Below, in pieces: positions 4,569 through 62,854 of a stretch of DNA of 64,000 bases. Source of the stretch: an uncultured Acidobacteriota bacterium (GTDB taxonomy: Bacteria > Acidobacteriota > Vicinamibacteria > Vicinamibacterales > CAVVIG01); the NCBI GenBank assembly GCA_963755195.1, contig CAVWIZ010000003.1, positions 44,154-108,153 of the forward strand, given 5' to 3'. The notes under the pieces were generated by a model, which did not search any database, was not told the DNA's origin, and worked only from the letters and a program-made list of their open reading frames with translations. The translations under genes and the position numbers were made by a program. How positions within the stretch are numbered: position 1 is the first letter of the stretch; every line of letters starts with the position of its first letter.

Positions 4569-5567
4569 CTACTTCGCACGGCCCTCGAACCCCTGCGCCT
4601 GCATGGGAATCGCAAAGATCGACTTCGCATTGTTGCGTACCCCGCTCGGCACCGTGTGTTCCTTGCCGTCAGCGTCGAGCGCCCCGCTTCCGACGACATA
4701 CATCGTCTTCTTGCCCGGGCCGGAAAAAGCGACGCTGATCACGGCCCTCGGCGTCGGAATGAGTCCTCTGTATTTTCCTTCGGGGCCGAACACCTGAACG
4801 CCGGGGCCCGACGTGACGTAGAGACGTCCGGCCGCGTCAACTGCCATCCCGTCGCCGCTGCCGCCGCCTTCGAGCGTTCCGAAGTCCCGCCGGTTCGTCA
4901 CGGTGCCGTCCGGCAGGATATCGAAGGCCAGGATGACGGGGCCGTTGGTGACGTAGAGGGTTTTCTCATCCGGGCTGAGCATGATCCCGTTCGAACGGAT
5001 ATCGTCGCCAAGGCTTCTGACCAAACCGCCCGGGTTGAAATAGTAGGCGGCGCCCACGGTGAAATACACACGGCCCTTGCCGTCGACCACGAGATCGTTG
5101 AGGCGCCCGAGTGGCTTTCCCTGAAAGTTGTCCGCCAGAACTCTCCGCGCTGGCGCGAGGACGCCCACGACGGTCGGCTCCGCGCAAGGGGGCAATGTGG
5201 ACGCTCTTCCCGGATCGGTGCAGGTCCGCTCCACGGCGAGGATGCGGCCCTGTGAATCGATCGCCAGCGAGCCCGCTCCATGCGTATCTTCCAGGAAGAC
5301 GGCATCGTTGCCGCTCTTGTCGAGCTTGCGGATCCGATTGGGCTGTTCCTGCGCGAACAACAGGCCGCCGTCGGCCGTGCCGACGATGCCGTCGGCATTG
5401 TCGAATCCCTGCCAGACAAGCTGCCACCTCAGTCCGGCGGCGACAACCCCCGGGATGGCGGTCACCGTCGCCTCTCTGAGCGGTCGCTCCTGCGCGGTCG
5501 CCTGGCTGAAAGTCGTGGGCAACACCGACAGACAGCACGCAATCACCAGCGCGGTGGTCGACTTCAT
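4569..5567 (-). CDS. SMP-30/gluconolactonase/LRE family beta-propeller protein
   Basis: 332-aa ORF with signal peptide and repeated D-x-G-(R/N)-(L/I)-(Y/F) blade motifs. ATGA overlap with the upstream gene. Confidence 0.7.
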   Translation of the reverse strand: MKSTTALVIACCLSVLPTTFSQATAQERPLREATVTAIPGVVAAGLRWQLVWQGFDNADGIVGTADGGLLFAQEQPNRIRKLDKSGNDAVFLEDTHGAGSLAIDSQGRILAVERTCTDPGRASTLPPCAEPTVVGVLAPARRVLADNFQGKPLGRLNDLVVDGKGRVYFTVGAAYYFNPGGLVRSLGDDIRSNGIMLSPDEKTLYVTNGPVILAFDILPDGTVTNRRDFGTLEGGGSGDGMAVDAAGRLYVTSGPGVQVFGPEGKYRGLIPTPRAVISVAFSGPGKKTMYVVGSGALDADGKEHTVPSGVRNNAKSIFAIPMQAQGFEGRAK

Positions 5568-6463
5568 AGCACGCGCGCCTGACGCATGACCGATTCCCCC
5601 TTCTGACGGATTTCCTTCGCCACTTCAAAAGGATCGGCCTGTTGAAATTTCGGCAGGAAGAGTTCGACAGAGAGAGGGCCCGCATATCCCTTGTCCGCGA
5701 GCTTGCGCAGAATCTTCGGCAATGGCGAAATTCCGTCGCCCGGGATCACGCGGGTGGTGAGGTCGAGCAGCTCGCGGGGCATGTCGGGCACATCCTGAAA
5801 GTGCACGTGCCCGATTTCACCGGGCCGGATCGAATCGAGGTCCTCAAGCTTGTTCAGGCCGGACCAGAAATGATAGCAATCGAGCAAGGGAGCGAGGTTC
5901 GGGTGCGCGGCGGCGCGCGTCATTTTCAGGAGCGTCGGCAACGTGGAAATAAACGGAGACGTGCGCACGAATTCCGCCATCGCCGTCATGCGGAACTGTC
6001 TGGCAATCTCACCAACTTCGCGCATGTTGTCCACGCCGGCCTTGTAGTCGTCCTGCGTGATCTTTTTCGTGGTGCCCGTGTGCGCATAAATGCGCGAGAG
6101 GCCGAGCGCGCCGAACATTTCGCAGCGCTTCTTCAGGTCGTCGAGCGCCGCGGCGTGATCGGGATTCGGCTCCCATAGACCCTGCACGCCACAAGCGGCC
6201 GAAACCGGTGTGAGCCCCAGGTCGGTGAGAACGCGCCCGGCGGCGGCGAGTGAATCGGTTTTCAGGAACTGGTCCAGCAACGAGGCCGTGATCTCGACAT
6301 GCTTGATTCCGGCGCGAGCCCAGCCCTCGAGCGACTTCCGATAGCCAGCGCCGTCGGAGGTGTTCTGGTGAATGGCGAGCGTCATCTTGCTCGAAGCCGC
6401 CGAAACGGCGCGCGCGGCCACGAGGGCCACCGGGGTCGTGAGTATCGCTCTTCTGGACAGCAT
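5564..6463 (-). CDS. sugar phosphate isomerase/epimerase (xylose-isomerase-like TIM barrel), Tat-type signal
   Basis: ORF 5564..6493. Likely start is ATG 6463 (MLSRRAILTT, twin-arginine). H-x-E and HFQD metal-site-like motifs. Confidence 0.75.
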   Translation of the reverse strand: MLSRRAILTTPVALVAARAVSAASSKMTLAIHQNTSDGAGYRKSLEGWARAGIKHVEITASLLDQFLKTDSLAAAGRVLTDLGLTPVSAACGVQGLWEPNPDHAAALDDLKKRCEMFGALGLSRIYAHTGTTKKITQDDYKAGVDNMREVGEIARQFRMTAMAEFVRTSPFISTLPTLLKMTRAAAHPNLAPLLDCYHFWSGLNKLEDLDSIRPGEIGHVHFQDVPDMPRELLDLTTRVIPGDGISPLPKILRKLADKGYAGPLSVELFLPKFQQADPFEVAKEIRQKGESVMRQARVL

Positions 6464-6522: not shown

Positions 6523-7116
6523 CTAGCGTGCCGCCAGGACAAGCCACGCCGCCAGCGTTGCCGCCTTGTGCTCGGCACGCCACGAACCGGCGACGGCCCG
6601 GCCGAGCACCGTGACCGCCGCGCGCAGGTCAGGCTCGGGCTGGCTCAGGGCTCCCGCCGCCGACGCGTACAGGTCGCGTTCACGCCAGACCGAGCATTTC
6701 AGCCGGCTTCGAGCGGCCGCGTCGTTCACAACACCGCGAAACAGGCGGCCCTCGAGCGCATGGATCCGAATGTGGTCGTTCGCAATCGTCGCCGGATCGA
6801 CGAGGCTCCCGACCACGATGCCGGCGCCGACGAGCCGATGTCCTCCGGCCTGGTAATCCTGAATGACGGCGGTCACGGACTGCCGCCCGAACCGCTCGAC
6901 CGAAGCGACGAGTCGTGAAAGTCTGGGCCCGCCTGCTCGCGCCGTTCCGAAGCCCGCATGATACGGCTGAACTGATTCCGGGACCGCCGGGTCGCTCAGC
7001 TCTACCCTACGGCTGTCCACGACACGAACGGATGCCGCCGCGCCCTCCAGCAGAACCACGCTGGCCCACCCGGACTTTACGGTGAAACCGACGGCCGCGT
7101 GAAGTCGCGTAGCCAT
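6523..7116 (-). CDS. hypothetical protein
   Basis: 197-aa ORF with coding-like composition, tightly packed with its neighbours. No family recognised; weak RNase-H-like impression only. Confidence 0.5.
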   Translation of the reverse strand: MATRLHAAVGFTVKSGWASVVLLEGAAASVRVVDSRRVELSDPAVPESVQPYHAGFGTARAGGPRLSRLVASVERFGRQSVTAVIQDYQAGGHRLVGAGIVVGSLVDPATIANDHIRIHALEGRLFRGVVNDAAARSRLKCSVWRERDLYASAAGALSQPEPDLRAAVTVLGRAVAGSWRAEHKAATLAAWLVLAAR

Positions 7117-7122
7117 TTCCGC

Positions 7123-7419
7123 CTACTTCACGTCCCAGCCACCCGGAGGGAGGTAGTGGAATCGAATCAGGTAGACGTTGTCACCTCTACCGTGCTTTGC
7201 CGTCTGGAGCAAATCGTCGACGCTGCTGAAGCCCGACTCGCGCGCCAAGTCGTAGGTCACATCCGCGATGCTCATCGGCACGATCGAATCGACCACGATC
7301 TGACCGTCGTCCATCTGGTAGCGACCGCCCTTCTTCACGTGGGGCCGCGTCCAGATGCGCACGCTGCACCTGATTCTCCCGCGCCGAATCCCTTCGCGAA
7401 GGTGCTTGCTGAACACCAT
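7123..7419 (-). CDS. ASCH domain-containing protein (YqfB-size)
   Basis: 98-aa ORF. GRIRCSVRIW...YLIRFHY pattern resembles small ASCH/PUA-like proteins. Confidence 0.6.
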   Translation of the reverse strand: MVFSKHLREGIRRGRIRCSVRIWTRPHVKKGGRYQMDDGQIVVDSIVPMSIADVTYDLARESGFSSVDDLLQTAKHGRGDNVYLIRFHYLPPGGWDVK

Positions 7420-7830: not shown

Positions 7831-8332
7831 GATTGGCTTCGTCGATCACCTTGAGAGCTTCGTCCGCCTCGGCCAGTTGCGCCTCGTTGAATACCTGAAC
7901 GCCCGCGCGCTGGAGTGCAGCAGCCGTGACGCCGGCGCCCCTCACGAGCCGACCGGAAAAACTGCCGTCATAGATCTCACCCGTGCCGCACGACGGACTC
8001 CGGGTTTTCAGGACGGCGACACGAATGCCCAGCTCTTGCGCGATTGCGACGGCGTGCCCGGCGCCGGCCAGGAATCGATCGGTGACGTCACGGCCGTCGC
8101 GTGTCAGAACCGCCGCGGCGCCGGCAAGAACCCTCGCTCCGTCACCTCCTATGGATTCCGCCGCGGGCCGAGGCGTACCCAGACCCGCGGCAACCTCTGG
8201 ACAGAGACCCACGACGCGTCCCTGCTCCTGCCACCGACTCAGGATGGAGCTTTCGATTCGTGCAGATCCGCCGTGATATCGCACTTCCGCTCCCAGGAGG
8301 CATGAGCTGACGATGACCTTGGCCGGAGGCAT
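7823..8332 (-). CDS. DUF523 domain-containing protein (TudS/YbbK-like)
   Basis: ORF 7823..8383 with likely start MPPAKVIVSSCLLG (8332). SSCLLG...CPE...SPSCG cysteine pattern typical of DUF523. Confidence 0.7.
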   Translation of the reverse strand: MPPAKVIVSSCLLGAEVRYHGGSARIESSILSRWQEQGRVVGLCPEVAAGLGTPRPAAESIGGDGARVLAGAAAVLTRDGRDVTDRFLAGAGHAVAIAQELGIRVAVLKTRSPSCGTGEIYDGSFSGRLVRGAGVTAAALQRAGVQVFNEAQLAEADEALKVIDEANHD

Positions 8333-10782: not shown

Positions 10783-11664
10783 TCAGGGTCCGAACCGGCG
10801 CGTGGCGTCGGCAACGACCATGTCGGCGAACGCGAGGACATCGTTGCGTCTCGCAACCGGTGTCCGATACAGCGAACCGCCGACGGGCGCTTGACGGATT
10901 CGCAGGTCGTCGATCATCTCGGCGAACGCGCTGGTCACATCCGGCCTGGCCCGGTCGGCCCGCCGAATGCGCAGCGCTTCGTTCAGAGCGCGGTGCCATT
11001 GTTCGGGAAATGTCTCAATTCCGTAGCAGCCTGCTTCTTCCTTGGAACCGATCTTCCCGGTGGCCAGCGTGTAGTGGAGCCGACACACACCCAATGCCAC
11101 CCACACCGCGCCGTACGACGTGAACGCGGTGATGCTCCACGGATCCGGAAAGCGACGTGCGCGTTTGAGCAGCGGTCGCCAATAACTGTCAAAGTTGTTC
11201 AGCGTCCACGAGGCCAATGCCGCGCGATCCGTCCAGATGGCAAGCGCCGCCGGCTCTGCGCCGCGGCACCGCACGCCATGGTCGGCGATGGTGCGCCACG
11301 TCACCGGATCGCAGGCGTCTCGCCCCCGTGTGTGGAAACGGCCTTCGTACGAGAACGGCCCGGGATCGGCCTGTCGCGGGTCGCGCGCCAGGTCGTTCCA
11401 CGTCACATACCGGCCGTCAAAGAATGGCCGAGGGCAGCGATTCCGCAAACGGGTGTGGGCCCGGCGGAGGGCCGCGAGAGCGGACGCGTCAGGATGCGTC
11501 GACGTGACGGCGAGAAAGTCGATGTCGCTCGTATGAGGACGAAACTCGCCAAGCGCGATCGAGCCAGTCAGGTAAAGGCCTTCAACCAGGCCGGGAGCGG
11601 CCGCGTCGACCGATTCCAAATACGCATCGACCACTGGCTGAACCCGATGGGGCAAAGACATCAC
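10783..11664 (-). CDS. nucleotidyltransferase, AadA/ANT(3'')-like (NTase domain plus DUF4111-like C-terminus)
   Basis: 293-aa ORF. GLYLTGSIALGEFRPHTSDIDFLAV NTase motif; C-terminal half resembles adenylyltransferase helical domains. Confidence 0.6.
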   Translation of the reverse strand: MMSLPHRVQPVVDAYLESVDAAAPGLVEGLYLTGSIALGEFRPHTSDIDFLAVTSTHPDASALAALRRAHTRLRNRCPRPFFDGRYVTWNDLARDPRQADPGPFSYEGRFHTRGRDACDPVTWRTIADHGVRCRGAEPAALAIWTDRAALASWTLNNFDSYWRPLLKRARRFPDPWSITAFTSYGAVWVALGVCRLHYTLATGKIGSKEEAGCYGIETFPEQWHRALNEALRIRRADRARPDVTSAFAEMIDDLRIRQAPVGGSLYRTPVARRNDVLAFADMVVADATRRFGP

Positions 11665-15670: not shown

Positions 15671-15697
15671 CCAATTACCAAATTACCCAATCACCCG
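15671..15697 (-). repeat. YGGGTAAT octamer array (3-4 units), 10 nt after the nuoN stop
   Basis: Minus strand reads TGA-ATCTGTTCAT-CGGGTGAT-TGGGTAAT-TTGGTAAT-TGG. Confidence 0.8.
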
Positions 15698-15707
15698 ATG
15701 AACAGAT

Positions 15708-17149
15708 TCAGAAAATGGTGCTGATGGAGGCGGCGGCCCAGTCGAGCACGCGCGCGGGCAGGATGCCGAGGTAGACAATCACGAGCGCCGACACGACGAG
15801 CGCGGCGCCGGCAATCTTCGGCACGGCCGGAAACCGCGCCATCGTCTCGCCCGACGGCGTCATGTACATCATGACGACGATGCGCAGATAGAAGAAGACC
15901 GAGACGACGCTGGTGAGCACGCCGATGATGGCGAGCCAGGTGTAGCCGGCCTTGACGGCCGCGCTGAAGACATACCACTTCGCGATGAACCCGGCCATCG
16001 GCGGGAACCCGCCGAGCGAAAGCATGAAGATCGTCATCAGGGCCGCGAGCACCGGGTGATCGTTCCAGAGTCCGGCGTAGTCGGTCACCTTGTCGTTCGG
16101 CCGGTCCGCGTCTTCGAGCAGACCGATGACGCCAAACGCGCCGAGGTTGGTGATCGCGTACGTCAGCAGGTAGAACAGCACCGCGCCCTTGCCGAGGTCG
16201 TTGCCGGACACGAGCGCGAGCAGCAGGTATCCGCCGTGCGCGATGCTCGAGTACGCCAGCATCCGCTTGACGTTGGTCTGCGCCACCCCCACCACGGTCC
16301 CGACGATCATCGTCGCCGCCGCGACGGGCCAGAGGACGGCGCCCCAGCTGTCGCGGAGCGGTTCGAAGGCCGCGAGAAACACGCGGACGAACGCCGCAAA
16401 AGCGGCCGCCTTGACGCCGGTGGACATGAATCCGGTGACCGCCGGCGGCGCGCCTTCGTAGGCGTCCGGTGTCCACATGTGAAACGGCACCGCCGACACC
16501 TTGAACGCGAACCCCACGAGCAGGAGACCCAGGGCCAGCATCAGCATCGGCGTGGGCGTCGTCGCCTGCGCCGCCACCATGGCGCCAATGCGGTCGAGCC
16601 GCGTGCTCCCCGTCAGCCCGAACGTGAATGCAATGCCGTACAGGAAAAACGCGCTCGAAAACGCGCCGAGCAGAAAATACTTGAAGGCGGCCTCGGTGGC
16701 GATGGGCGAGTCACGTCGAATGCCCGTCAGGACGTACACGGCAATCGAGAGCACCTCGAGGGCGAGGAAGATCACGAGCAGATCGGAAGCGGTCGCCATG
16801 AGCATCATGCCGGCGAGGGCAAACAGCATCAACGCGTAGTACTCGCCGCGCGGCAGACGCTCCCGATCGACGGTCGGCGCCGACAACGCCAGCGAGAGCA
16901 GCCCGACGGCAATCAGTACGCCCGTGACGAACAGCCCGAAGTTGTCGGCCACGACGACGCCGAAACTCGATGCGTTGTGATTCCAGAGCACCGCGCACGC
17001 CAGGGCGGCGCCGATGAGGCCGATGACGCCGAGCGGCGCAATCGGCATCCGCTCGCCGGGGACGCTGAAGGCCTCCGCAATCATCGCGGCGATGGCGGCT
17101 GCCGTCACGCAGGCCATCGGCACGATCGCGTTAAAGGAGCCTGATGCGA

Positions 17150-17153
<4 letters not shown>
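15708..17153 (-). CDS. nuoN: NADH-quinone oxidoreductase subunit N
   Basis: 481-aa polytopic ORF. FKVSAVPFHMWTPDAYEGAP antiporter-like motif; last gene of the nuo operon. Confidence 0.92.
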
Positions 17154-20753: not shown

Positions 20754-20815
20754 CCACGAAGACACGAAGGCACGAAAGATCAGAGGCTCTTCTTCGTGTT
20801 TTCGTGCTTTCGTGG
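20754..20815. repeat. CACGAAG octamer-array hairpin between nuoK and nuoL
   Basis: CCACGAAGA-CACGAAGG-CACGAAAG, a 13-nt loop, then CTTCGTGT-TTTCGTGC-TTTCGTGG. Three direct units face three inverted units. Confidence 0.85.
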
Positions 20816-22710: not shown

Positions 22711-22792
22711 ATCACGAAGACACGAAGGCCACAAAGACACCTCTTGTACAAGAGGCGTTTCGTGTGCCTTCGCGGGCTTCGTGCCTTCGTGA
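22711..22792. repeat. CACGAAG octamer-array hairpin between nuoF and nuoH
   Basis: ATCACGAAGA-CACGAAGG-CCACAAAG-ACA, perfect 16-bp palindrome CCTCTTGTACAAGAGG, then CGTTTCGTGTG-CCTTCGCGGG-CTTCGTGC-CTTCGTGAT. Confidence 0.85.
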
Positions 22793-24205: not shown

Positions 24206-24247
24206 CCAGACTCTAGTCCCCAGACCCTAGACCCCAGTCCCTAGCCC
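24206..24247 (-). repeat. GGNCTRG heptamer x6, 6 nt after the nuoE stop
   Basis: Minus strand reads TAG-GAATAA-GGGCTAG-GGACTGG-GGTCTAG-GGTCTGG-GGACTAG-AGTCTGG. Confidence 0.85.
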
Positions 24248-24253
24248 TTATTC

Positions 24254-29916: not shown

Positions 29917-31557
29917 TCACTGCTCCCACTCGTACCCCGGCGCCGTCGTCAGACGGCCGTCCTCGACCGGCATCCCCACCGTGAAGTGATACAGGCTTTG
30001 AAATGCGTGTCCGGAGAAGCCCATGACGTCGTGAACCGGGTCGTCGAAGAAACAGCCGATGCCGGTGGCACGAGCCGACGCCGCCTCGGCTTCGAGGTAG
30101 AGCACCTGGCCGACCACGCCCGACTCCCAGAACAGGTGACGGTAAAAGGCCGGCCCGAATTCCTGGAGGCTGCGATCGAAATCGGCCAACATCCCGATGC
30201 TGAAAAAACCGTCGGCCGCAATGTCCTGCCCGCAGCTGAGACGCGCGGCCAGTGCGCGACAGTCGCCGCGCGCCAGACGAACGAGCGGGCCGGCCTTCTC
30301 CCAGAGGAACGTGGAACTCGACGCTTTCTTCAGCGCGTCGAGCACGCCCTCGTCCCGCGGCAGAAGGTACAGACCCGGTTCGAGGCCGTCCACGCGGTGG
30401 ACGAACAGCACGAGGTGAATTCGCGGCGTCCACCACATGGCGTCCCACGGCGCATGCGGACCGGGCACGGCGCGGGCAAGCATAGCGACGAAACGGTCGA
30501 CGCCAATCGATGAACGGCCGTCGAACGCCACGGCACTGCGACGCTGGAGGATCAGCCTGCGAGCATCCGCTGACGATGACGGCGAGAATTGGGTAATCGG
30601 GTAATCTGGTAATTGGGTAATTGGTGGTGGTAGGCGACCCGGATCCTCCGTCGCGAGCGCGATCTCGTCGATGAACGACCACTGCACGTGATCCTCGCTC
30701 AACTGGCTCGCGCACCCGGTCCATCGCCCGCCACGAACAGCCCGCACGAGCGCTTCGCGCGACGCCGCACGTCGCACGATTTCGTCGGCGCCTCGCACGG
30801 TGACCGCGAGGATGCAGCCGGGCTCCTCGCGCTCGGCTTCGACGAAGTCTTCGTCGCGATCGATGCCGGTGAGCGCCGCAATGTCACGCTGCGGCCACTC
30901 CGGGAGCAGTGCCGCCCGCCAGCCATGGAGCGCGGCCGCGAGCCGCAGGGCGCCGATGGCGTGACCCAGATCGTGCTGGCAGTACCGGAACGCCCGCTCG
31001 CCGTACTTCCACGACTCGCGCCAATGAATGGAGGTCAGGGCCACCAGGCACACGACGTCGGCGTCCCACGCGGTCGGCCATGCCGTCGGGTCGAAGACCG
31101 ACCGGCGCTCGAGCACGTGGCGATCGGCCGCGTAGTGGAACACCGACGGCGTCTCGGACAAACCGTCGAGCGCACCCGTTACCACGTAGGCCTCGGTCGG
31201 GTGCAGGTTGCCGCTCGAAGGGTTGACGCGGAGCGACCAACGCGAACCGCGAAACTCCTTCCACGCGCTCAGCCCAAGGGCGTGCCGCAGCAGATCGCCG
31301 ACGGCGGCAGCCGTGGGAATCGAGGGCGGCGCCGATGACGTGGGGAAAAAGAGCTGGTCGTAACTGAAAGGTGACGAAGCAGCAGCAGACGGACCGTCCG
31401 GCGCCGGAAACAACGGCACCGAGGCCGCGCCGCTGAACGTACGGAAGGGACGAGGCTGCGACGCCCAGTCGAGATAGCCGGTCGACCGGGCGAACCGATG
31501 AAAGTGGTGCTTGGTGCCGTCGTGGTAGAGATGGACGGCGTCGAGCTCAGACACCAA
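29917..31557 (-). CDS. SagB-type dehydrogenase / nitroreductase family protein with two tandem domains
   Basis: 546-aa ORF. N-terminal LYHDGTKHHFHRF... SagB-like start and a second nitroreductase-like half. The interdomain linker PPPITQLPDYPITQF is encoded by the octamer repeat at 30586-30627. Confidence 0.65.
   Translation of the reverse strand: MVSELDAVHLYHDGTKHHFHRFARSTGYLDWASQPRPFRTFSGAASVPLFPAPDGPSAAASSPFSYDQLFFPTSSAPPSIPTAAAVGDLLRHALGLSAWKEFRGSRWSLRVNPSSGNLHPTEAYVVTGALDGLSETPSVFHYAADRHVLERRSVFDPTAWPTAWDADVVCLVALTSIHWRESWKYGERAFRYCQHDLGHAIGALRLAAALHGWRAALLPEWPQRDIAALTGIDRDEDFVEAEREEPGCILAVTVRGADEIVRRAASREALVRAVRGGRWTGCASQLSEDHVQWSFIDEIALATEDPGRLPPPITQLPDYPITQFSPSSSADARRLILQRRSAVAFDGRSSIGVDRFVAMLARAVPGPHAPWDAMWWTPRIHLVLFVHRVDGLEPGLYLLPRDEGVLDALKKASSSTFLWEKAGPLVRLARGDCRALAARLSCGQDIAADGFFSIGMLADFDRSLQEFGPAFYRHLFWESGVVGQVLYLEAEAASARATGIGCFFDDPVHDVMGFSGHAFQSLYHFTVGMPVEDGRLTTAPGYEWEQ
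30586..30627 (+). repeat. YGGGTAAT octamer array (about 5 units) inside the nitroreductase CDS, antisense to it
   Basis: Plus strand reads GAATTGGGTAAT-CGGGTAAT-CTGGTAAT-TGGGTAAT-TGGTGG. It is translated on the minus strand as PPPITQLPDYPITQF. Confidence 0.85.
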
Positions 31558-31816
31558 TGAGCGAGGTCGTTTCGGCCATGCGTCGATCGATCTCGGCCAT
31601 CGCCTGGCCGATCTGGTCGCGCCGCCGCTCGTGCGCTGTCGCGCCCATCTGGCGCTCGAGCTCGGTACGCGCGAGCCTGAGCGATTCGAGCACCCTCATC
31701 CGCTCGGGATCGCGCACGTCGCGAATCTGCGCCTTGGCGCGCTCGCGCTCGAGTTCTTCCATCCGCTCTTGAATTCGTGAATCCGCGTCGATCAAGCCTT
31801 CGCCAGCATCACCCAT
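31547..31816 (-). CDS. hypothetical coiled-coil small protein
   Basis: ORF 31547..31822 (ATG at 31816). Charged helical sequence ERMEELERERAKAQIRD... Overlaps the downstream nitroreductase start by 11 nt. Confidence 0.45.
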   Translation of the reverse strand: MGDAGEGLIDADSRIQERMEELERERAKAQIRDVRDPERMRVLESLRLARTELERQMGATAHERRRDQIGQAMAEIDRRMAETTSLIGV

Positions 31817-31824
31817 ACCCACAT

Positions 31825-34800: not shown

Positions 34801-36581
34801 TGAGTGTAGGCGCCGATGCGCGGTACATCGCGGTTGAGGACGCGGCCCGCTATCGTGACGCCCTCGGCGTCTTGCTGCCGACCGGCATCCCGAAGCCGCT
34901 GCTCGCTCCGGCGCCGGATCCACTCGGCAACCTGGCGCGCCGATTCGCGCGGACGCACGCCCCGTTTACCGCGGCCGAGTTCGCGCGGCGCTACGGGCTC
35001 GACGTCGAAGCGGCCAGCGAGGTGCTTGGCAGGCTCACCGCCGACGCCGGACTCGGCCTCGGCCTCATTCAGGGCGAATTCCGGCCAGGCGGCACGGGCC
35101 GCGAGTGGACCGATACCGCGGTCCTTCGGCGGCTTCGCCAGCGCTCGCTGGCCCGGCTTCGCCGGGAGGTCGAACCAGTCGATCAGTCGGTGCTCGCGCG
35201 TCTCGAAACGAAGTGGCAGGGGATTGTGACGAGACGGCACGGCACGGACGCGTTGCTCGACGCGATCGAACAGCTCCAGGGCGCTCCCCTGCCGGCGTCG
35301 ATCCTCGAAACGGAAATCCTGCCCGCGCGCATCGACGCCTACGATCCGGCCGACCTCGATGCCGTCACGGCCGCGGGCGAAGTCGTGTGGGTGGGCGTCG
35401 AACCGATTGGCGACCGCGACGGCCGAATCGCGCTGTACCTTGCGGACGAGCTGTCTCGACTGCTGCCGCCCGATCTCGTGAAACCGAACCTCGACTCGGG
35501 CGAGGCCGCCATCCTCGAGCATCTTCAGGAGCATGGCGCGTCGTTCTTCGGACCGCTGCACACGGCGATCGGCGGCGGCTACCCAGGTGAAACCGTGACG
35601 ATGCTGTGGAATCTGGTGTGGCGAGGCCTCGTCGCGAATGACACCTTTCATGCGCTGCGCGCGTTCACGGCGGCGCACATGCCGAGGCGGCGCTCGCGCC
35701 GGGGCCAATCCTCCAGTGCGACGGCATTTCGATCGCGCCGCAGCGCGCCGCTGTCGGCCGAAGGGCGCTGGACGCTCGTCGCGCGGAACCGGCCTGAGCG
35801 TGGAGCGAAGAGCCCCGCGCGACGGGAGAGCACAGCATGGGCCGCGGCGTGGGCGCAGCAGCTGCTCGCCCGCCACGGAGTGCTGACGCGCGAGGCTGTC
35901 GCGTCTGAAGGCGCTGCCGGTGGATTCGGCGTCGTTTATCCCGTGCTGAAACTGATGGAAGACAGCGGGAAGATTCGGCGCGGCTATTTTGTCGCGGGCC
36001 TCGGCGCAACGCAGTTCGCGCTGCCCGGCGCGCTGGATCTGCTGCGCTCGCTCCGCGACCCGCAGTCACACGATGGTGGCGAACCTGAGGAGGTGGTGTT
36101 GGCCGCGACCGATCCCGCCAATCCCTACGGCGCGGCCATCAAGTGGCCCGCCTTCGCCGGTGCGACTGCACCGGCTTCGGCGCGGCAAGCCCGAGGCACG
36201 GCGTCGACTTCAGCGCGGCAGGCCCAAGACACGGCGCCGGCGACGGCGGGGCGAGGACCCACGCGATCGGTAGGCGCCACGGTGATTCTGGTCGACGGCG
36301 CGCTGGCCGCCTATCTCGCACGCGGTGATCGACAGTTGCTGACGTTTCTGCCGGAGGGCGAGCCCCAGCGGTCCAACACCGCCCGCGCCGTCGGACGCGC
36401 GCTCGTCGCCCGTGCGCGCAGCTCTGCCGGAGACAACCTCGCTCCTCGAGGCATGTTGATTGAGGAAATCGACGGCCTGCCGCCGTCAATTCACGCGATC
36501 GCGCCCCACCTGGTGGCGGCGGGGTTCATCTCAGGGGCGATGGGACTCCAGGCAACGTTTACGAATCGGGTAATTGAGTAA
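31839..36581 (+). CDS. lhr: Lhr-family ATP-dependent DEAD/DEAH-box helicase (large helicase-related protein)
   Basis: 1580-aa uninterrupted ORF. FHPAVRAWF..PTRPQTQGWP..LILAPTGSGKTL (motif I), VIVDEIH (DExH), SHHGSIAREQR, GRGGH motif VI, and a long Lhr-type C-terminal extension. Confidence 0.9.
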   Translation: MTARPTSDALARFHPAVRAWFGTAFGAPTRPQTQGWPAIARGESTLILAPTGSGKTLTAFLWCLDRLMFAPLPHKARRCRVLYVSPLKALAVDVERNLRAPLAGIAAAAEARGDPYIRPAIAIRTGDTPQADRARFQREPADILITTPESLYLLLTSNAREALRSIDTVIVDEIHALVPTKRGAHLMLSLERLAARGDRPLQRIGLSATQRPLDEVARFLGGVQPNNAAGRQGRRPAGLKGPRHNRETEAETDIDQEFAMHRGVVRYRPVTIVDAGQRKPLELRIDVPVEDMARLTTSDDIPSGPASVGDTRQSIWSAIHPRLLDLIRAHRSTLVFVNSRRLAERLAGALNELAGEMLVRSHHGSIAREQRVEVENLLKSGDLRGLVATSSLELGIDMGAIDLVVQIEAPPSVASGLQRIGRGGHHVNAISKGVIFPKFRGDLVACAAVAKAMHEGAVEATRYPRNPLDIVAQQVVAMTAMDEWDVDDLFATVRCAAPFAELSRATFDGVLDMLSGRYPSDEFAELRPRITWDRAAGTVAAREGAKRVAVINGGTIPDRGLFGVFLLGAAPGTSRVGELDEEMVFETHVGETFVLGASSWRVEEITHDRVLVSPAPGQPGKMPFWKGDRSGRPIELGLAIGRLVHDLLRLPPAAAVDRLTRQHDLDVVAAGNLLQYLRDQMAATRAVPDATTILVERVRDDLGDWRVCVLSPRGGRIHAPWAMAAAAKIREERGIDVETLWGDDGFVVRFPDVDEPPDVRLLLPDPDEVQALVVRQLGATAMFAAKFRENAARSLLLPKRRPGMRAPLWQQRKRSADLLAVASRYGSFPVLLETYRECLRDFFDMPALISTLADIRSRTVRVATVDSDKPSPFAASLLFSYVASFLYDGDAPLAERRAQALAVDQAQLRELIGDAELRELLDAESIDAVERELQRLDPRYLAKSADAVHDMLLAIGDLTLEEIQARTIPDAAAPAIDALVMAKRALLVSVGADARYIAVEDAARYRDALGVLLPTGIPKPLLAPAPDPLGNLARRFARTHAPFTAAEFARRYGLDVEAASEVLGRLTADAGLGLGLIQGEFRPGGTGREWTDTAVLRRLRQRSLARLRREVEPVDQSVLARLETKWQGIVTRRHGTDALLDAIEQLQGAPLPASILETEILPARIDAYDPADLDAVTAAGEVVWVGVEPIGDRDGRIALYLADELSRLLPPDLVKPNLDSGEAAILEHLQEHGASFFGPLHTAIGGGYPGETVTMLWNLVWRGLVANDTFHALRAFTAAHMPRRRSRRGQSSSATAFRSRRSAPLSAEGRWTLVARNRPERGAKSPARRESTAWAAAWAQQLLARHGVLTREAVASEGAAGGFGVVYPVLKLMEDSGKIRRGYFVAGLGATQFALPGALDLLRSLRDPQSHDGGEPEEVVLAATDPANPYGAAIKWPAFAGATAPASARQARGTASTSARQAQDTAPATAGRGPTRSVGATVILVDGALAAYLARGDRQLLTFLPEGEPQRSNTARAVGRALVARARSSAGDNLAPRGMLIEEIDGLPPSIHAIAPHLVAAGFISGAMGLQATFTNRVIE

Positions 36582-36673
36582 TCTGGCAATTTGGTAATTG
36601 CGCCATCGCGATGCGATGGCGTTTGGGCAATTACCAATTACTCAATTACCCGATTACTCAATTACCCAATCAC
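36567..36673. repeat. Inverted pair of YGGGTAAT octamer arrays flanking a 9-bp hairpin; fills the lhr/NHL convergent spacer
   Basis: Left arm CGGGTAAT-TGAGTAAT-CTGGCAAT-TTGGTAAT (contains the lhr TAA). Centre CGCCATCGC-GAT-GCGATGGCG. Right arm is the reverse complement of five units and ends at the NHL stop. Confidence 0.9.
36601..36621. terminator. central hairpin of the lhr/NHL convergent spacer
   Basis: CGCCATCGC-GAT-GCGATGGCG (9-bp stem), extended imperfectly by the flanking inverted octamer arrays. Confidence 0.45.
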
Positions 36674-37653
36674 TTCCCTCGCACATACCTGTCCAGCCCG
36701 TGCCGCCGGACGACGGCGCCGTAGACGTTGCCCTGCGCATCGACGCCCACGCCCTCCGCGCCGCTGTGGTCCGGCGTCGTGGACTCGATGTCTTCAATGA
36801 AGTCGATCGGCACGCCGTCCTTCGCGCTGCCGATGCGGAAGCCTTTGCGCCAGCCGGGGTTGTCGGGGCCGGACTCGGAGTCGGCGACGTACAACATGTC
36901 GTCCTTCGTGATGGCGATCCCACTCGGCCGCCCGAACTGTTTCCACGTGTCGAGGAGCTTGCCGTCCTGGTCGTAGATCTTGATCCGGTTGTTTTCACGA
37001 TCGCCGACGAACAGCCGGCCTTGCGAGTCCATGGCAATGGTGTGCGGTTCGCTGATGTCGTCAGGGCCGGCGCCCTTCCGGCCCCACTCCTTGATGTACG
37101 CTCCGTCTTTGGAGAATTTCACGACGCGGCTGTTCGGCGAGCCGCGATGGCCGTCAGTCACGAAAATGTCGCCGTTTCTCGCGGTCACGACGTCGGTCGG
37201 CTGGTTGAAAGTGTCGCGGCCGAGGCCTGCGACGCCGGCTTTGCCGAGCGTCAACAGGAGTTTCCCGTCGCCACTGAACTTGAACACCTGGTGTCCCTTG
37301 CCTGCCGCGCCACGCGAGTCGGTCGCCCAGAAATTCCCGTCCTTATCAACAGAAGCCCCGTGCGGGAACACGAACATCCCCTGTCCCCAACTCTTGAGCA
37401 GCTTCCCCGACGGGTCGAACTTCAGGATCGGCGCCACATCGTCGTGTCCGATGCAGCCGTTGTTGTCTTTGGCGAAGCAGCGCGAGAGGACGAACACGGT
37501 GCCGTCGGGCGCAATGTCCACGGACGTGACTTCACCCCACGTCGCGCCGGCCGGCAACTGTCCCCAATCGGTCGTGCGGCGATAGTAATGCCGCTGCGCG
37601 TGAACGGTCGCGACAGCCAGCGCAAGCAGGGCGATTGCCATGAGTCGTCGCAT
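36670..37653 (-). CDS. secreted NHL-repeat beta-propeller protein (PAL-like)
   Basis: ORF 36670..37749 with start MRRLMAIALLALAVATVHAQ (ATG 37653). Repeated P-x-G-(I/V)-(A/S)-(V/I)-D-x-x-G-N-(I/F)-(F/W/Y)-V-(A/T)-D blades. Confidence 0.75.
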   Translation of the reverse strand: MRRLMAIALLALAVATVHAQRHYYRRTTDWGQLPAGATWGEVTSVDIAPDGTVFVLSRCFAKDNNGCIGHDDVAPILKFDPSGKLLKSWGQGMFVFPHGASVDKDGNFWATDSRGAAGKGHQVFKFSGDGKLLLTLGKAGVAGLGRDTFNQPTDVVTARNGDIFVTDGHRGSPNSRVVKFSKDGAYIKEWGRKGAGPDDISEPHTIAMDSQGRLFVGDRENNRIKIYDQDGKLLDTWKQFGRPSGIAITKDDMLYVADSESGPDNPGWRKGFRIGSAKDGVPIDFIEDIESTTPDHSGAEGVGVDAQGNVYGAVVRRHGLDRYVRGK

Positions 37654-48353: not shown

Positions 48354-50021
48354 CTACTGAGTCAACGGCATTCGAGGCAACATCTCATCGCGCATCGCGG
48401 TGTTGTAGAGCAGCGTCGCGATGACGACGGCCGCCTGACGCAAGTCGTCCGGGACCAGCCGATCATAGGTGTCGCTGTTCGTGTGGTGCGTGCGGGTGTC
48501 GTACTCGAGCGGGTCCTGAATGACGCCGGGAGCGGGAATCCCGGCCTGGAAAAAGGGGCGGCAGTCGCCCGGGCACCAGGGGCGCAGCGTCACCAGCGTC
48601 GTGCCGAGATCATTCAGTGGCGCTATCCACTGCTGAAAGATCGGCAGGAGGGCCGCATTACCCGAGAGCCCCACCCCTCGAATCCTGCCGGTCCCGAGGT
48701 CCACGTTGTAAACAGCCGAGAGGAGCGCATGGTCGGGCTTTGGAACAATGGCACCCACTCTTCTGCGCATCGCCTCCGGGATGAGCAACTGCTGCGGCGT
48801 GACGTCGTGCGGCACGTCCGCGATGTGACGGTTCACATAGGCGACCGAGCCGAGGAGGCCCTGCTCTTCTCCCGTCCACAGGGCCACTCTGATCGTTCGT
48901 GCGGGCCGGACGCCAAGCGCGTTCAGGATGCGCATCGCTTCCATCGCGACGACGACACCTGCGCCATCGTCTGTGGCGCCGGTGCCCGCCGCCCAACTGT
49001 CGAGGTGGGCCGTGACCATCACCGCCTCGTTCTTTCGGCGCCCGTCGACACCCGGGATCTCGGCGAACACATTGAAGCCTTCCACACGATCGCCCGTGAA
49101 CTCCACGTCCACGTTCATCTCAACCTTGACCGGCACCTTTCGATCCAACAGCCTGGTCATCCTGAGGTATTCCTCGACCGCCACGACCACAAGCGGAACC
49201 TGCATGGCATGCGCCTTCTGATAGGCGTACATCCCAAGGTTGGAGTTCCAATCCGCGTAAATGGTCCCACCGCTCGCGCCGCCACGCGGATTGTTTCCAC
49301 TCGGGACCATGACGGCGCGAACGCCCTCGTCTTTGAAAAAGCGCGAAATCCGCTCCGCGAACGCTGCGTTCGCGAACCCCCGCTCGACATTTTGTTGAGC
49401 CGCGTCATCGTCGCGTGGCGCGCCCGGCAGAATCCGTCCAAACTCAGCGAGCTTCACATCATCGAACCGATCCGACAGCGGCTTGTCGATCGGGAAGGTC
49501 TCCGGCACGCTCGCCGCCCTTCCAAGCAGGACGATCTTGCCTTCTAGCTTCCCTCGAAGCGCGTCGAATCCCTTCTCGTCGCCGAATCCGTGCACCGACA
49601 CCACGTCTCCGGCGATCCGGCCTGGCGTTGCCGGCGACCACGGACCCGCCGTCGTGATGAAGTTCGCGCCATAGGGCTCCACGAGCCGCACCCATACATT
49701 GCGCTGACGCCAGCCGAACCCGAACTCGCCCCAGCTCTCTTTCTGAACGTTCGAGCTCCCGGCCGCGGCAAGTCGATCCATCGCCCAGGAGACCGCCTTC
49801 TCCAGGCCCGGGGACCCGGTGAGGCGCGGGCCGATGCCGTCCATCAGCTCCGTTGCGTAGTCCATGACTTTCGAGCGCGTCATCCCCTCGTCGCGGATGC
49901 GCCCATACATGACCAGATCGGGAGCATCGCTCGACACCTGAGCCATGACCAGCTTTGCGGCCACAAGGGCGATCATGGTGATCGTCAAGCTTCGTCGAGA
50001 GTTGAATCGTTCGAAGAACAT
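48354..50021 (-). CDS. M28 family metallopeptidase, secreted
   Basis: ORF 48354..50042. HLDSW..GTGATDDGAGV..WTGEEQGLLGS..H(T)NSDT metal-ligand pattern. ATG 50021 or 50039 are possible starts; the TTG at 50042 lies inside the octamer array. Confidence 0.85.
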   Translation of the reverse strand: MFFERFNSRRSLTITMIALVAAKLVMAQVSSDAPDLVMYGRIRDEGMTRSKVMDYATELMDGIGPRLTGSPGLEKAVSWAMDRLAAAGSSNVQKESWGEFGFGWRQRNVWVRLVEPYGANFITTAGPWSPATPGRIAGDVVSVHGFGDEKGFDALRGKLEGKIVLLGRAASVPETFPIDKPLSDRFDDVKLAEFGRILPGAPRDDDAAQQNVERGFANAAFAERISRFFKDEGVRAVMVPSGNNPRGGASGGTIYADWNSNLGMYAYQKAHAMQVPLVVVAVEEYLRMTRLLDRKVPVKVEMNVDVEFTGDRVEGFNVFAEIPGVDGRRKNEAVMVTAHLDSWAAGTGATDDGAGVVVAMEAMRILNALGVRPARTIRVALWTGEEQGLLGSVAYVNRHIADVPHDVTPQQLLIPEAMRRRVGAIVPKPDHALLSAVYNVDLGTGRIRGVGLSGNAALLPIFQQWIAPLNDLGTTLVTLRPWCPGDCRPFFQAGIPAPGVIQDPLEYDTRTHHTNSDTYDRLVPDDLRQAAVVIATLLYNTAMRDEMLPRMPLTQ

Positions 50022-50039
50022 GGCGTATCCCGGCACCAT

Positions 50040-50102
50040 CAATTACCCAATTACCCAATTACCCAATTACCCAATTACTCAATTACCAAATTCCAAATCA
50101 CC
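50040..50102 (-). repeat. YGGGTAAT octamer array (7 units) filling the MFS-to-M28 spacer
   Basis: Plus strand has AATTACCC x4, then AATTACTC, AATTACCA, AATTCCAA. The minus strand gives four GGG tracts with 5-nt TAATT loops. Confidence 0.9.
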
Positions 50103-51600
50103 TGAACATCTGGCTGACAAGCGTCAGCGTCCTGAAGACGCCCCAGCCGATTGGGACACCAGCGAGCAGCCAGCCGGCAGCCACCAGGCCCCACTCGCCT
50201 GCCGGCGCACCAGCCATCGTCGTCTTCGACTGACCGCGCCCGGCCACCGGCGCCCCAGGCGACAAAGTAAACAGGTCTTTCCCGACCGGCCGCACGGCCA
50301 GATTACAGATCAAGCCGACGCCGAGAAAGGCCACGAGGATGTACATCGTGAACGTATAAGCGTTGGCCGGCGCCACGCCGTGGCCGATCTGGAATTCGCG
50401 AATGTAATTCACGAGCACCGGCCCGAGAATGCCGGCGGTGGACCAGGCGGTCAGCAGGCGACCGTGAATCGCGCTCACGTTCCCCACGCCAAACATGTCC
50501 GCCAGGTACGCCGGAATCGTCGCGAATCCTCCGCCGTACATCGTCAGGATGATGCAGTAGATCGCGACAAAGAGCGCCAGGCTGCCGCTTGCTCCCGCCG
50601 CCGGCGCCGAGGCGTAGAGCAACATGCCGAGTGCGAAGAACACCATATACGTGGTCTTGCGGCCTATGTGGTCGGACAGCGACGCCCAGAAGATGCGTCC
50701 GCCGATGTTGAAGAGGCTGAGCAGTCCGATGAAGCCGGCAGCGGCCGACGCCGTGACGCGTCCCTTGAAGATCTCCTGAATCATCGGCGACGCGATGCCG
50801 AGCACGCCTATGCCGGCCGTGACGTTGAGACACAGAACGCCCCAGAGGAACCAGAATTGCGGTGTCTTCCACGCGACGTCCACGGGCACGGAGCCTGCCG
50901 CGGTCGCGGCCTGCGTGTGGGCGGGCGGCGTCCATCCGGCCGGCGACCAGCCAGGCGCCGGCAGACGGTACCCGAACGCACCGGCCATCATCACGACGAA
51001 GTAAATCGCCCCGAATACCACGAACGTCTGCCAGACGCCGACCGACTCCGGCGTGGCGAACTGTTTCATCAACACGTCGGCGAGCGGGGTGCCAATCATC
51101 GCGCCGCCGCCAAATCCCATGATCGCCAGACCCGTCGCCATGCCGCGGCGATCGGGAAACCATTTGATCAGCGTCGAGACCGGCGAAATGTAGCCCAGCC
51201 CCAGGCCACAGCCGCCGATCACGCCCGAACCGAGCCACAGCATCCAGATTTGATGCAGCTCGATGCCGACCGCCGAGACGAAAAACCCTCCGCTCCAGCA
51301 GCACGCGGCCACGACGCCTGCCTTGCGCGGCCCTTCGCGCTCGACCCATGGGCCAAAGATGGCGGCCGACGATCCGAGCATCACGAAAAACAGCGTGAAC
51401 ATCCACCCGAGCGTGCTGATCTTCCAGTCGTCCGGCGCCGACTGCGTGATGCCGATGGCACGGCTGAGCGGCAGCCAGAACACACTGAACCCGTACGCCA
51501 TGCCAATGCACAAGTGGATCGCGAGCGCCGCGGGCGGCACCAGCCAGCGATTGAACTCGGGCCCGGCGATGATGCGATCTTTCGAGAGCAGGTCGGCCAT
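50098..51600 (-). CDS. MFS transporter, oxalate/formate antiporter (OFA) family
   Basis: 500-aa polytopic ORF. N-terminal NRWLVPPAALAIHLCIGMAYGFSVFWLPL and WFPDRRGMATGLAIMGFGGG motifs typical of the OFA family. Confidence 0.8.
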   Translation of the reverse strand: MADLLSKDRIIAGPEFNRWLVPPAALAIHLCIGMAYGFSVFWLPLSRAIGITQSAPDDWKISTLGWMFTLFFVMLGSSAAIFGPWVEREGPRKAGVVAACCWSGGFFVSAVGIELHQIWMLWLGSGVIGGCGLGLGYISPVSTLIKWFPDRRGMATGLAIMGFGGGAMIGTPLADVLMKQFATPESVGVWQTFVVFGAIYFVVMMAGAFGYRLPAPGWSPAGWTPPAHTQAATAAGSVPVDVAWKTPQFWFLWGVLCLNVTAGIGVLGIASPMIQEIFKGRVTASAAAGFIGLLSLFNIGGRIFWASLSDHIGRKTTYMVFFALGMLLYASAPAAGASGSLALFVAIYCIILTMYGGGFATIPAYLADMFGVGNVSAIHGRLLTAWSTAGILGPVLVNYIREFQIGHGVAPANAYTFTMYILVAFLGVGLICNLAVRPVGKDLFTLSPGAPVAGRGQSKTTMAGAPAGEWGLVAAGWLLAGVPIGWGVFRTLTLVSQMFR

Positions 51601-55827: not shown

Positions 55828-56280
55828 ATGACGATCAAATTCCCTGTTCTCGCCCTTATTTCTACTGCGGCTCTGGCGGTGACGACGGCCGGCACGCTTC
55901 GCGCGCAGGCGCCCGCGGCGGCCCCGGCAGCAAAGACAACCAACGACGGTGTGTACACCGAGGCGCAGGTCAAGCGCGGCAACGAGGTGTATCAGGCGCA
56001 GTGCGCGTCATGCCACGACGCACAGCTGGCGGGCAGCGGCACGGCGCCGGCGCTCGCCGGCACCGACTTCAGCGCCAACTGGAAAGACGAAACGGTGAGC
56101 TCCCTCTTCGAGCGCATCCGCGCGACAATGCCGGCGGACAACCCGGGGAGCCTCCAGCGTCCTCAGGTGGCGGATCTTATTGCCTTCATGTTGAACTTCA
56201 ACAAGTACCCCGCAGGGCAAACCGAGCTCGCGACCGATTCCGAGGCGCTGAAAGCGATAAAGATTTCGGCGGTCAAGTAA
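55828..56280 (+). CDS. c-type cytochrome, secreted
   Basis: 150-aa ORF with signal peptide and a single CASCH haem-binding motif (CXXCH). Confidence 0.8.
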   Translation: MTIKFPVLALISTAALAVTTAGTLRAQAPAAAPAAKTTNDGVYTEAQVKRGNEVYQAQCASCHDAQLAGSGTAPALAGTDFSANWKDETVSSLFERIRATMPADNPGSLQRPQVADLIAFMLNFNKYPAGQTELATDSEALKAIKISAVK

Positions 56281-56308
56281 TTCACGGTTCACGGTTCACG
56301 GTTCAGGG
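56281..56308 (+). repeat. TTCACGG heptamer x4 immediately after the cytochrome c stop
   Basis: TAA-TTCACGG-TTCACGG-TTCACGG-TTCAGGG. The last unit forms the left arm of the 56302-56328 hairpin. Confidence 0.85.
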
Positions 56309-56328
56309 TTCGAACCGGGAACCCTGAA
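56302..56328. terminator. hairpin between convergent cytochrome c and MBL genes
   Basis: 10-bp stem TTCAGGGTTC / GAACCCTGAA with a 7-nt loop. No clear U-run on either strand. Confidence 0.45.
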
Positions 56329-56330
56329 GG

Positions 56331-57822: not shown

Positions 57823-57861
57823 AGAAAGAAAAAGACCCGCCCTCTGTGAAGAGGGCGGGTC
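57823..57861 (-). terminator. rho-independent terminator of the TonB-receptor gene
   Basis: On the minus strand, an 11-bp perfect stem GACCCGCCCTC / GAGGGCGGGTC with a 6-nt loop, followed by TTTTTCTTTCT. Confidence 0.75.
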
Positions 57862-57864
57862 TCA

Positions 57865-57921
57865 CTTACCCAATTACTCGATTACCCGATTACCCGATTA
57901 CCCAATTACCCAATTACCAGA
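57865..57921 (-). repeat. YGGGTAAT octamer array (7 units) between the TonB-receptor stop and its terminator
   Basis: Minus strand reads TAA-TCTGGTAAT-TGGGTAAT-TGGGTAAT-CGGGTAAT-CGGGTAAT-CGAGTAAT-TGGGTAAG, then the terminator hairpin. Confidence 0.9.
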
Positions 57922-61453: not shown

Positions 61454-61513
61454 CACTTTCAACTTTCAACTTCGACTTTCACCTTTGCCCTTTACACTTT
61501 GCACTTTCTTTTC
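61454..61513. repeat. CTTTCAN-type heptamer array (about 8 units) in the TonB-receptor/pspC divergent region
   Basis: CACTTTC-AACTTTC-AACTTCG-ACTTTC-ACCTTTG-CCCTTTA-CACTTTG-CACTTTC-TTTTCC. AT-rich relative to the flanks. Confidence 0.8.
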
Positions 61514-62807: not shown

Positions 62808-62826
62808 GAGCACGCGACAGAATCAG

Positions 62827-62854
62827 GGCTGAGAGCTAAGGGCTAAGTGCTGGG
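62827..62854 (+). repeat. NGCTRRG heptamer x4, 19 nt after the PspC-domain gene stop
   Basis: GGCTGAG-AGCTAAG-GGCTAAG-TGCTGGG. Confidence 0.7.

Follow-up and report, generated by a model that had tools for sequence, protein, structure and literature searches.

How does a short tandem repeat whose relatives lie between genes come to be read as protein in the middle of an enzyme gene, and in the opposite orientation to that gene? The question is raised by a 64,000-nt stretch of an uncultured Acidobacteriota genome (hereafter the window), in which an octamer array of consensus ATYGGGTA occupies positions 30587-30627 within an uninterrupted 546-aa open reading frame (ORF) on the minus strand (29917-31557), a tandem-domain gene of the nitroreductase fold and SagB/ThcOx type. 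The G-rich strand of the array is the plus strand, ATTGGGTA ATCGGGTA ATCTGGTA ATTGGGTA ATTGGTGG, and the gene reads the C-rich strand (TACCCRAT) as PPPITQLPDYPITQF, amino acids 310-324, in the context ...RLPPPITQLPDYPITQFSPS..., also given as ...GRLPPPITQLPDYPITQFSPS.... Tandem Repeats Finder (TRF) assigns the array a period of 8, 4.8 copies and 86% matches, in agreement with an original prediction that had counted about five units inside this ORF from the sequence alone. Our reading, to which we give a probability of about 70%, is that a dispersed ATYGGGTA copy was captured into the interdomain linker of this protein in the ancestor of one clade, in the C-rich orientation and without a change in length, and was then inherited vertically.

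By sequence and modeled fold, the host protein is a SagB/ThcOx-type tandem nitroreductase and a predicted flavoenzyme. Pfam family PF00881 matches the N-terminal nitroreductase-like lobe (amino acids 86-238; 30844-31302, minus strand) with a score of 46.2 against a cut-off of 23.5, and the NCBIfam SagB model TIGR03605 matches in two stretches with 87.5 bits against a curated cut-off of 78.4. An AlphaFold2 model based on 46 homologues (predicted TM score 0.90) consists of two alpha/beta lobes with a coil at residues 303-331 between them (30565-30651, minus strand), which we refer to as V2; the C-terminal nitroreductase-like lobe follows at residues 332-546 (29920-30564, minus strand). The top structural match of the model is the cyanobacterial two-lobe protein 3eo7 (Ava_2154; E = 3e-26, TM 0.66/0.73), which aligns over both lobes, and ThcOx is next. 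Because the coil separates the lobes, the array-encoded residues 310-324 belong to the interdomain linker, and the original placement of the array between two nitroreductase-like halves stands. The model also maps the repeat to a coil of lowered confidence: pLDDT is 66-72 at the coil versus 85-95 in the neighboring blocks.

The in-gene array belongs by sequence to a family whose other members are intergenic. A search with a 16-mer of two units, allowing up to three mismatches, yields 22 matches in the window versus 0.02 expected from shuffles; four of the 22 overlap the in-gene array, and together the matches fall at six sites (15671-15699, 30587-30627, 36565-36599, 36628-36674, 50040-50102, and 57866-57924). 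All five of the other arrays follow one rule, in that they adjoin a stop codon and have as their G-rich strand the sense strand of the gene that ends there. The array at 36565-36599 (plus strand) supplies the last codons and the stop codon of an Lhr helicase gene (1580 aa): the gene ends ACG AAT CGG GTA ATT GAG TAA, so that its last five codons, N-R-V-I-E, and its TAA are array sequence (36565-36581). An inverted partner (36628-36674, minus strand) lies where the convergent gene, of 359 aa, has its stop. Another array (15671-15699, minus strand) lies 8 nt past the stop of the gene at 15708-17153 (minus strand), four perfect units at 50040-50102 (minus strand) fill the interval that separates the stop of 50098-51600 from the start of 48354-50042 (both minus strand), and seven units at 57866-57924 (minus strand) follow a TAA stop (...ATFDF*) and are in turn followed by a terminator hairpin (about 57833-57862), which is G+C-rich and has a U tract.

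Metagenome contigs scanned for three units yielded at least 120 further stretches, mostly from soil (loci L084-L203). The 195 arrays examined in the window and these 120 loci have 3-12 units and the consensus A-T-Y-G-G-G-T-A. At least 84 of them begin between -22 and +22 nt from the stop of an ORF of at least 80 codons that is rich in G+C at third codon positions (GC3), the G-rich strand again being the sense strand of the gene, and in 30 of those 84 genes the TAA of the array itself is the stop codon. Inverted pairs no more than 150 nt apart number 51 in the order G-rich strand then C-rich strand and zero in the reverse order. The window pair at 36565-36674, with its central hairpin, has a predicted folding energy of -53.5 kcal/mol (z = -7.5); single arrays are unstructured as RNA. 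We rejected the G-quadruplex as a general explanation, given that the canonical motif (G3N1-7) occurs in only 74 of the 195 arrays and the in-gene copy has three GGG runs only. A gathering-threshold Rfam scan of the whole window matched no family, and a full-text literature search on the repeat sequence, on Vicinamibacter tandem repeats, and on octanucleotide repeats at stop codons returned no description. Besides parallel heptamer families in Nitrospira, the work brings to light a family of tandem octamers of soil Acidobacteriota that hug stop codons and for which we found no description in Rfam or the literature, and the strict polarity of the arrays points to a role at the 3' ends of genes.

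Measured against this family, the in-gene array has the consensus over more than three units, and its unit variants ATTGGGTA, ATCGGGTA, and ATCTGGTA all recur in intergenic arrays. In contrast to the stop-adjacent members, which start within about 22 nt of a stop and run in the sense of the upstream gene, it lies 670 nt from the stop of its gene and antisense to it; the sole plus-strand ORF that ends in it runs for 61 codons in the antisense frame and has a second-position G+C content of 0.64. Neither an inverted partner array nor a terminator-like hairpin follows it, and local RNA structure is absent at the site (fold z = +1.0 and +1.5).

The unusual orientation follows from the genetic code. 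In the orientation ATTGGGTAA, each unit contains a TAA, and since 8 and 3 are coprime, every reading frame meets a stop within three units. The orientation TACCCAAT is stop-free in all frames (TAC CCA ATT ACC CAA TTA CCC AAT), all three of which give the cyclic peptide LPDYPITQ per 24 nt. An array can therefore persist inside an ORF only when the gene reads the C-rich strand, which is why the sole mid-gene copy is antisense; its orientation is explained by the code and not by biology specific to this gene. The original prediction had singled it out as the only copy antisense to the gene that contains it. The antisense placement is correct and has this simple cause, but the other copies are intergenic or reach no further into a gene than its final codons and stop. 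Sixteen of the 195 arrays can be read on the C-rich strand with at least 60 codons on each side, and coding-type composition is present on both sides in the nitroreductase copy only (GC3 of 0.79 and 0.76). The others are upstream of gene starts, in artificial ORF extensions. The nitroreductase copy is thus a true exception among the arrays examined.

The site that received the array is variable in length and sequence throughout the protein family. The 120 homologues listed, from 7,999 that scored at E <= 1e-10, share 61-100% identity with the window protein, and every one covers 98-100% of the query. Eighty listed genome loci from Acidobacteriota, Nitrospirota, Planctomycetota, Proteobacteria, and others (43-66% identity, the closest among the matches listed being Vicinamibacterales metagenome-assembled genomes (MAGs) at 66%) all encode the two-domain protein without the octamer. 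Across 84 orthologues the linker is hypervariable, with a length of 17-41 aa and no sequence conservation. The window linker has 26 aa versus 25 aa in the nearest outgroups, and since it is no longer than in array-free relatives, the array took the place of linker sequence and was not added to it. The original proposal that a repeat of an intergenic family is tolerated in the interdomain linker is supported by these data, namely units identical to intergenic ones, a coil at the site, and hypervariable linkers in relatives. The accompanying statement that an intergenic repeat family is creating coding sequence is right in part only: the linker is hardly longer than the typical 25 aa, and the replacement, which is not an addition, happened long ago. 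That three octamers equal eight codons, so that frame is kept, is insufficient by itself as an explanation, because the array measures 41 nt, a multiple of neither 3 nor 24.

Alignment across orthologues places the repeat in a single clade. Of the 120 closest homologues, about 25, at 62-81% identity, have octamer-type linkers (...ITQLPDYPIT... or ...PDYPITRLPD...), and in a neighbor-joining tree built without the variable loops they are confined to one clade, where they are interspersed with PA-rich linkers (...PAPPAYPA) that, judged from their sequence, read like G+C-enriched decay products of LPDYPI. A subclade around the window protein (P0002, P0004-6, P0008, P0009) has 74-81% identity, and a broader subclade (P0023, P0036, P0038, P0041, P0044, P0053, P0055, P0057, P0074, P0081, P0082, P0098, P0106, P0112) 62-66%. 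Among eleven members for which orthologue DNA was compared, eight (L001, L082, L083, L204, L206, L207, L209, L210) retain the octamer register in the same reading phase, as in the linkers of L001 (ATT ACC CGA TTA CCC GAC TAC CCG GTT ACC CAA) and L083 (CAA TTA CCC GAT TAC CCG ACT ACC CAA TTA CCC GAT). Confinement to one clade, in whose DNA the octamer register and the rare codons persist, marks a DNA-level signal and not a convergent peptide. The window, L001, L206, and L207 share one array length and one register although the proteins have diverged by about 25%, a pattern that favors vertical descent over active slippage. In L204 (81% identity), ATTAC has become ATCAC in all octamer units in concert, and in L205 (79% identity) a 9-mer (CCAGCCTTT)n array replaces the octamer (about 10925-11035). 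We observed in-frame 9-mer arrays (CCDGCCYTT, read as PAF/PAL repeats) at the octamer position in two members of the wider clade, L205 and L006 (4144-4195). Separately, the DNA of the 'VVQDFSPAV' linkers of a neighboring clade contains a perfect hairpin, GCAGGAC-TTCA-GTCCTGC, and beyond it a second GTCCTGCCGTG copy (L211, 10901-10950); no further copies of this element were found in 20 kb of L211 flanks, and a dispersed repeat is thus unsupported there.

Conservation of the array core is visible at both the nucleotide and the amino-acid level. Its codons are rare in the genome (TTA is 0.5% of Leu, CAA 12% of Gln, and CCA 7% of Pro codons), and GC3 is 0.48 in the core versus 0.81 outside it. 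In L001, L206, L207, L082, and L083 (67-76% protein identity), nucleotide identity to the window is 0.81-0.89 in the core versus 0.69-0.76 in the rest of the gene, while the reverse is true of the two closest relatives, L204 (0.72 versus 0.85) and the 9-mer-bearing L205 (0.39 versus 0.84). Codons ending in A or T are kept in 59% of cases in the core versus 34% elsewhere (Fisher p = 0.005, for sequences that are not independent), and third positions are about twice as conserved in the core as in the rest of the gene. Changes from the consensus comprise 14 synonymous and 18 nonsynonymous substitutions where 24% synonymous would be expected, and this synonymous excess indicates that the peptide is under some purifying selection. 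The segment is thus conserved at both levels in several lineages and dispensable in others. That a captured repeat can persist for so long and keep both its nucleotide register and its very rare codons suggests that something besides the protein is selected.

Other lineages carry repeats of their own in the same gene. In addition to the linker, a second variable loop, V1 (amino acids 249-276; 30730-30813, minus strand), contains no array in the window and tandem arrays in many orthologues. V1 and V2 make up 10% of the gene bases in the 84 orthologues yet hold 32 of 75 TRF tandem repeats, 26 of them with non-triplet periods, and the variety of these lineage-specific arrays supports the view that the loops accept the short repeats of each lineage. 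The Vicinamibacterales MAG L016 has (GAATCCC)4 in V2 (7257-7287) and, in this gene, two copies of a 73-nt element that are 96% identical, one in frame in V1 (7036-7108) and one at the C-terminal end (7972-8044); in this element GGGATTC units, which the V2 repeat complements, flank a hairpin and a GCCCTGAGCCTGTCGAAGGGC core. In L010, also Vicinamibacterales, (GGGATCC)n in V1 (6085-6135) and (GGATCCC)n in the linker (6300-6345) give the strongest V1-V2 complementarity, with z of about -7. In Nitrospira orthologues V1 holds G-rich heptamers and V2 the C-rich heptamers that complement them, some 190 nt apart within the ORF (L057, 1045-1104 and 1300-1340; L081, 10758-10794 and 11010-11052; also L074, L044, and L062). 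Their units vary by lineage (GGTGAGG; ACGTGAA/TTCACGC; GTAAGGA/TCCTTAC) with complementarity kept, and in L074 and L081 the V1/V2 heptamers recur at the stop of the gene itself or just past it. Predicted V1-V2 duplexes range from -21 to -57 kcal/mol, with shuffle z values down to -4 in the Nitrospira loci. An unrelated heptamer, (TCGTCAG)x8.6, read as SSVVSQQPSVV, is found in V1 of L082 (2763-2821), a member of clade B (LPDYPITRLPD linkers) with the octamer in its linker.

The alternatives to capture by the linker can be weighed against these observations. The position of the array exactly between the lobes, and the intergenic, stop-abutting habit of its family, would suit a fusion of two adjacent single-domain nitroreductase genes by read-through of an intergenic array, which the original prediction had offered as its other possibility. 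We regard fusion as ruled out, because the two-domain architecture is conserved across phyla and in 3eo7: all 120 listed homologues are essentially full length, none of the 80 loci has two separate genes or the octamer, both lobes of the solved cyanobacterial protein match, and the array is limited to one young clade. A non-triplet tandem repeat in mid-ORF might equally toggle translation of the C-terminal lobe by slippage. Such phase variation is highly improbable, since the units are imperfect and the array has a fixed length and register among orthologues; moreover, none of the 120 listed matches is frameshifted, and the near-perfect repeats and the copy-number differences or frameshifts among close relatives that characterize contingency loci are not seen. 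It is also improbable, though less so, that LPDYPIT(Q/R)LPD is simply a protein motif kept by selection on the peptide, the likeness to the arrays being incidental or the arrays even deriving from the motif. The motif is kept in about 25 orthologues down to 62% identity, the synonymous fraction of changes (14 of 32) exceeds expectation, and about 60 kb of orthologue flanks hold no intergenic arrays; LPDYPIT linkers extend to orthologues at 62-64% identity whose sampled flanks are array-free. But all of these orthologues belong to one clade, the peptide is exactly one 24-nt octamer cycle, the rarest codons of the genome and the octamer register are kept across lineages, every unit variant matches the intergenic family, conservation at third positions is about twice that outside the core, and the motif has disappeared from many clade members that retain the gene.

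An account that is compatible with capture, and that we consider possible but unlikely, is that the array is maintained for a role in DNA or RNA, whether as a site for a factor that recognizes the intergenic arrays, as a latent C-rich, G-free, rut-like Rho-loading tract, or as a G-rich block to antisense transcription. The excess of core nucleotide identity over the rest of the gene, the retention of codons ending in A or T, the unstructured state of the array in mRNA, the complementary arrays in the same loops of other lineages, and the strict polarity of the family (51 pairs to none) are consistent with such a role. The window gene, however, has no inverted octamer partner: the ORF contains no G-strand array, and the V1-V2 duplex has z = -0.5; there is no local fold (z about +1), the array has decayed in many clade members, no Rfam family matches, and neither the in-gene copy with its three GGG runs nor most of the 195 arrays qualifies as a canonical G-quadruplex. 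It is doubtful that V1 and V2 are a conserved site for a nucleic-acid-level element made of the arrays of each lineage, of which the lone C-strand octamer of the window would be the surviving half because a G-strand partner, with TAA in all frames, could not exist inside an ORF. If true, the maintenance of V1-V2 complementarity through turnover of the unit (GGTGAGG, ACGTGAA, GTAAGGA, GGGATCC, GGGATTC) would amount to covariation of whole units, and would imply either a selected long-range stem in mRNA or DNA or a mechanism of inverted copying.

We return to capture of a family member by the linker, against which several points must be set. The simple, clean insertion that one might picture is not demonstrated and is not what the sequence displays today, the array length being no multiple of three and the linker no longer than in outgroups. 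The synonymous excess weakens the case for a purely tolerated passenger, our conservation statistics treat related sequences as independent, and the tree that confines the octamer to one clade is a distance tree without support values. In addition, about 60 kb of flanks of array-bearing orthologues have no intergenic octamer array versus five in 62 kb of the window; across 1.34 Mb (the 80 genome loci plus L001), the only octamer array is that of the L001 linker, the other 16-mer matches being isolated and chance-like. The linker copy and the intergenic family are seen together in the window only, and L205, which has intergenic arrays, has the 9-mer linker: the stop of its Lhr gene also carries an octamer array (4999-5022), which is missing there in L001, L083, L208, and L209. 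Because the sampled flanks are gene-dense and syntenic, their lack of arrays is no proof that the family is missing from those genomes. A comparison of shared genes found a single likely orthologue of a window gene, at 64% identity, in the array-bearing metagenome locus L184, which hints that the intergenic family may reach about as far as the linker clade.

We posit the following course of events. The family normally resides directly after stop codons, and one copy probably entered the hypervariable linker in the common ancestor of the Vicinamibacterales-like clade, either by insertion with a compensating deletion or by slippage in situ. In its C-rich orientation it is free of stops and encodes a proline-rich, unstructured peptide, LPDYPITQ per 24 nt, suited to a linker. 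About 13 linker residues would have been replaced without lengthening the linker, and vertical inheritance in a fixed register has followed. Several lineages have held the array near its consensus, by our account because purifying selection acts on the peptide and probably on the nucleotides as well, while in others it would have decayed to G+C-richer, PA-rich linkers or been replaced by 9-mer arrays. The data themselves show that the array belongs to the family by sequence, where it lies, why it is antisense, that it is confined to one clade, that it descends vertically, and that it is conserved; how it arose and why it is kept are inferred. On this reading the gene offers a clean case of a noncoding repeat family turned into protein sequence, with a simple governing rule, that only the stop-free orientation at an unconstrained linker survives.

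The neighborhood of the gene is conserved in the window and 10 orthologous loci, where the order is the Lhr helicase gene, an ORF of 89-91 aa, the nitroreductase gene, and then a VWA protein gene, a glycosyltransferase gene, or the nuo operon. The small ORF (31547-31822 in the window, minus strand; 86-91 aa across loci and Glu/Arg-rich) matches no Pfam or NCBIfam model. It precedes the nitroreductase gene, divergent from Lhr, in every locus looked at, namely the window, L001 (9742-10011), L204-L206, L082, L083, and L208-L211. The predicted 11-nt overlap of this ORF with the start of the nitroreductase gene recurs exactly in window-clade loci, which suggests translational coupling of the two genes. 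No YcaO cyclodehydratase or precursor-peptide gene is listed in the window or in the 10 orthologous loci, and the gene thus lies outside an azoline-peptide context.

The window also contains other short repeats. A second array family at two intergenic sites (20755-20814 and 22713-22791) has the form (CACGAAGA)n, a short loop, and (TCTTCGTG)n, and forms long inverted-repeat hairpins. At 56278-56330, a heptamer array, (TTCACGG)x4, comes right after the TAA of the gene at 55828-56280 and is followed by a hairpin, CAGGGTTCGAACCGGGAACCCTG; this order of stop, array, and hairpin is the layout of the octamer family with another unit. Further short arrays are located at 24208-24248 (AGACCCT), 61455-61507 (ACTTTCA/CTTTGCA), and 62825-62851, and 21-mer arrays at 62208-62401.

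Several known systems resemble parts of this picture. Ribosome termination structures are stable mRNA structures directly downstream of stop codons (PMC7518266). The intergenic octamers resemble them in lying directly after stop codons and in that paired arrays fold into a very stable hairpin, and differ in that single arrays are unstructured and in that they form a sequence-specific repeat family and not a generic structure. The host protein resembles the SagB/ThcOx family, in that it passes the TIGR03605 cut-off and superposes with both lobes on 3eo7, but unlike SagB/ThcOx systems its gene has no cyclodehydratase or precursor peptide nearby.

The REP, BIME, and REPIN elements of proteobacteria are single imperfect palindromes of about 20-40 nt mobilized by RAYT transposases. 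Like the intergenic octamers, they lie just past stop codons, often as inverted pairs that form hairpins between convergent genes, and have lineage-specific sequences; the arms of the octamer pairs, in contrast, are tandem octamers of variable copy number (3-12 units) with a strict G-to-C polarity. Contingency loci in ORFs of Neisseria, Haemophilus, and Campylobacter consist of near-perfect tetra-, penta-, or heptanucleotide repeats that vary in copy number and in most cases lie toward the 5' end. They share with the in-gene octamer a non-triplet tandem unit inside an ORF, whereas the octamer array is imperfect, fixed in length among orthologues, and placed in a mid-gene linker. The nearest precedent for the in-gene copy, by analogy, is provided by the Rickettsia palindromic elements (RPE), which Ogata et al. 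reportedly described in 2000 as lying in frame in protein-coding genes. Both are dispersed families found between genes and in frame within ORFs, at permissive surface or linker sites of the protein, and are inherited with the gene. RPE are palindromic units of 100-150 bp, similar to miniature inverted-repeat transposable elements, that add a discrete insert and so lengthen the protein relative to its orthologues; the octamer array is built of tandem, nonpalindromic 8-nt units, is readable in one direction only, and leaves the linker, at 26 aa versus 25 aa and within the overall range of 17-41 aa, no longer than it was.

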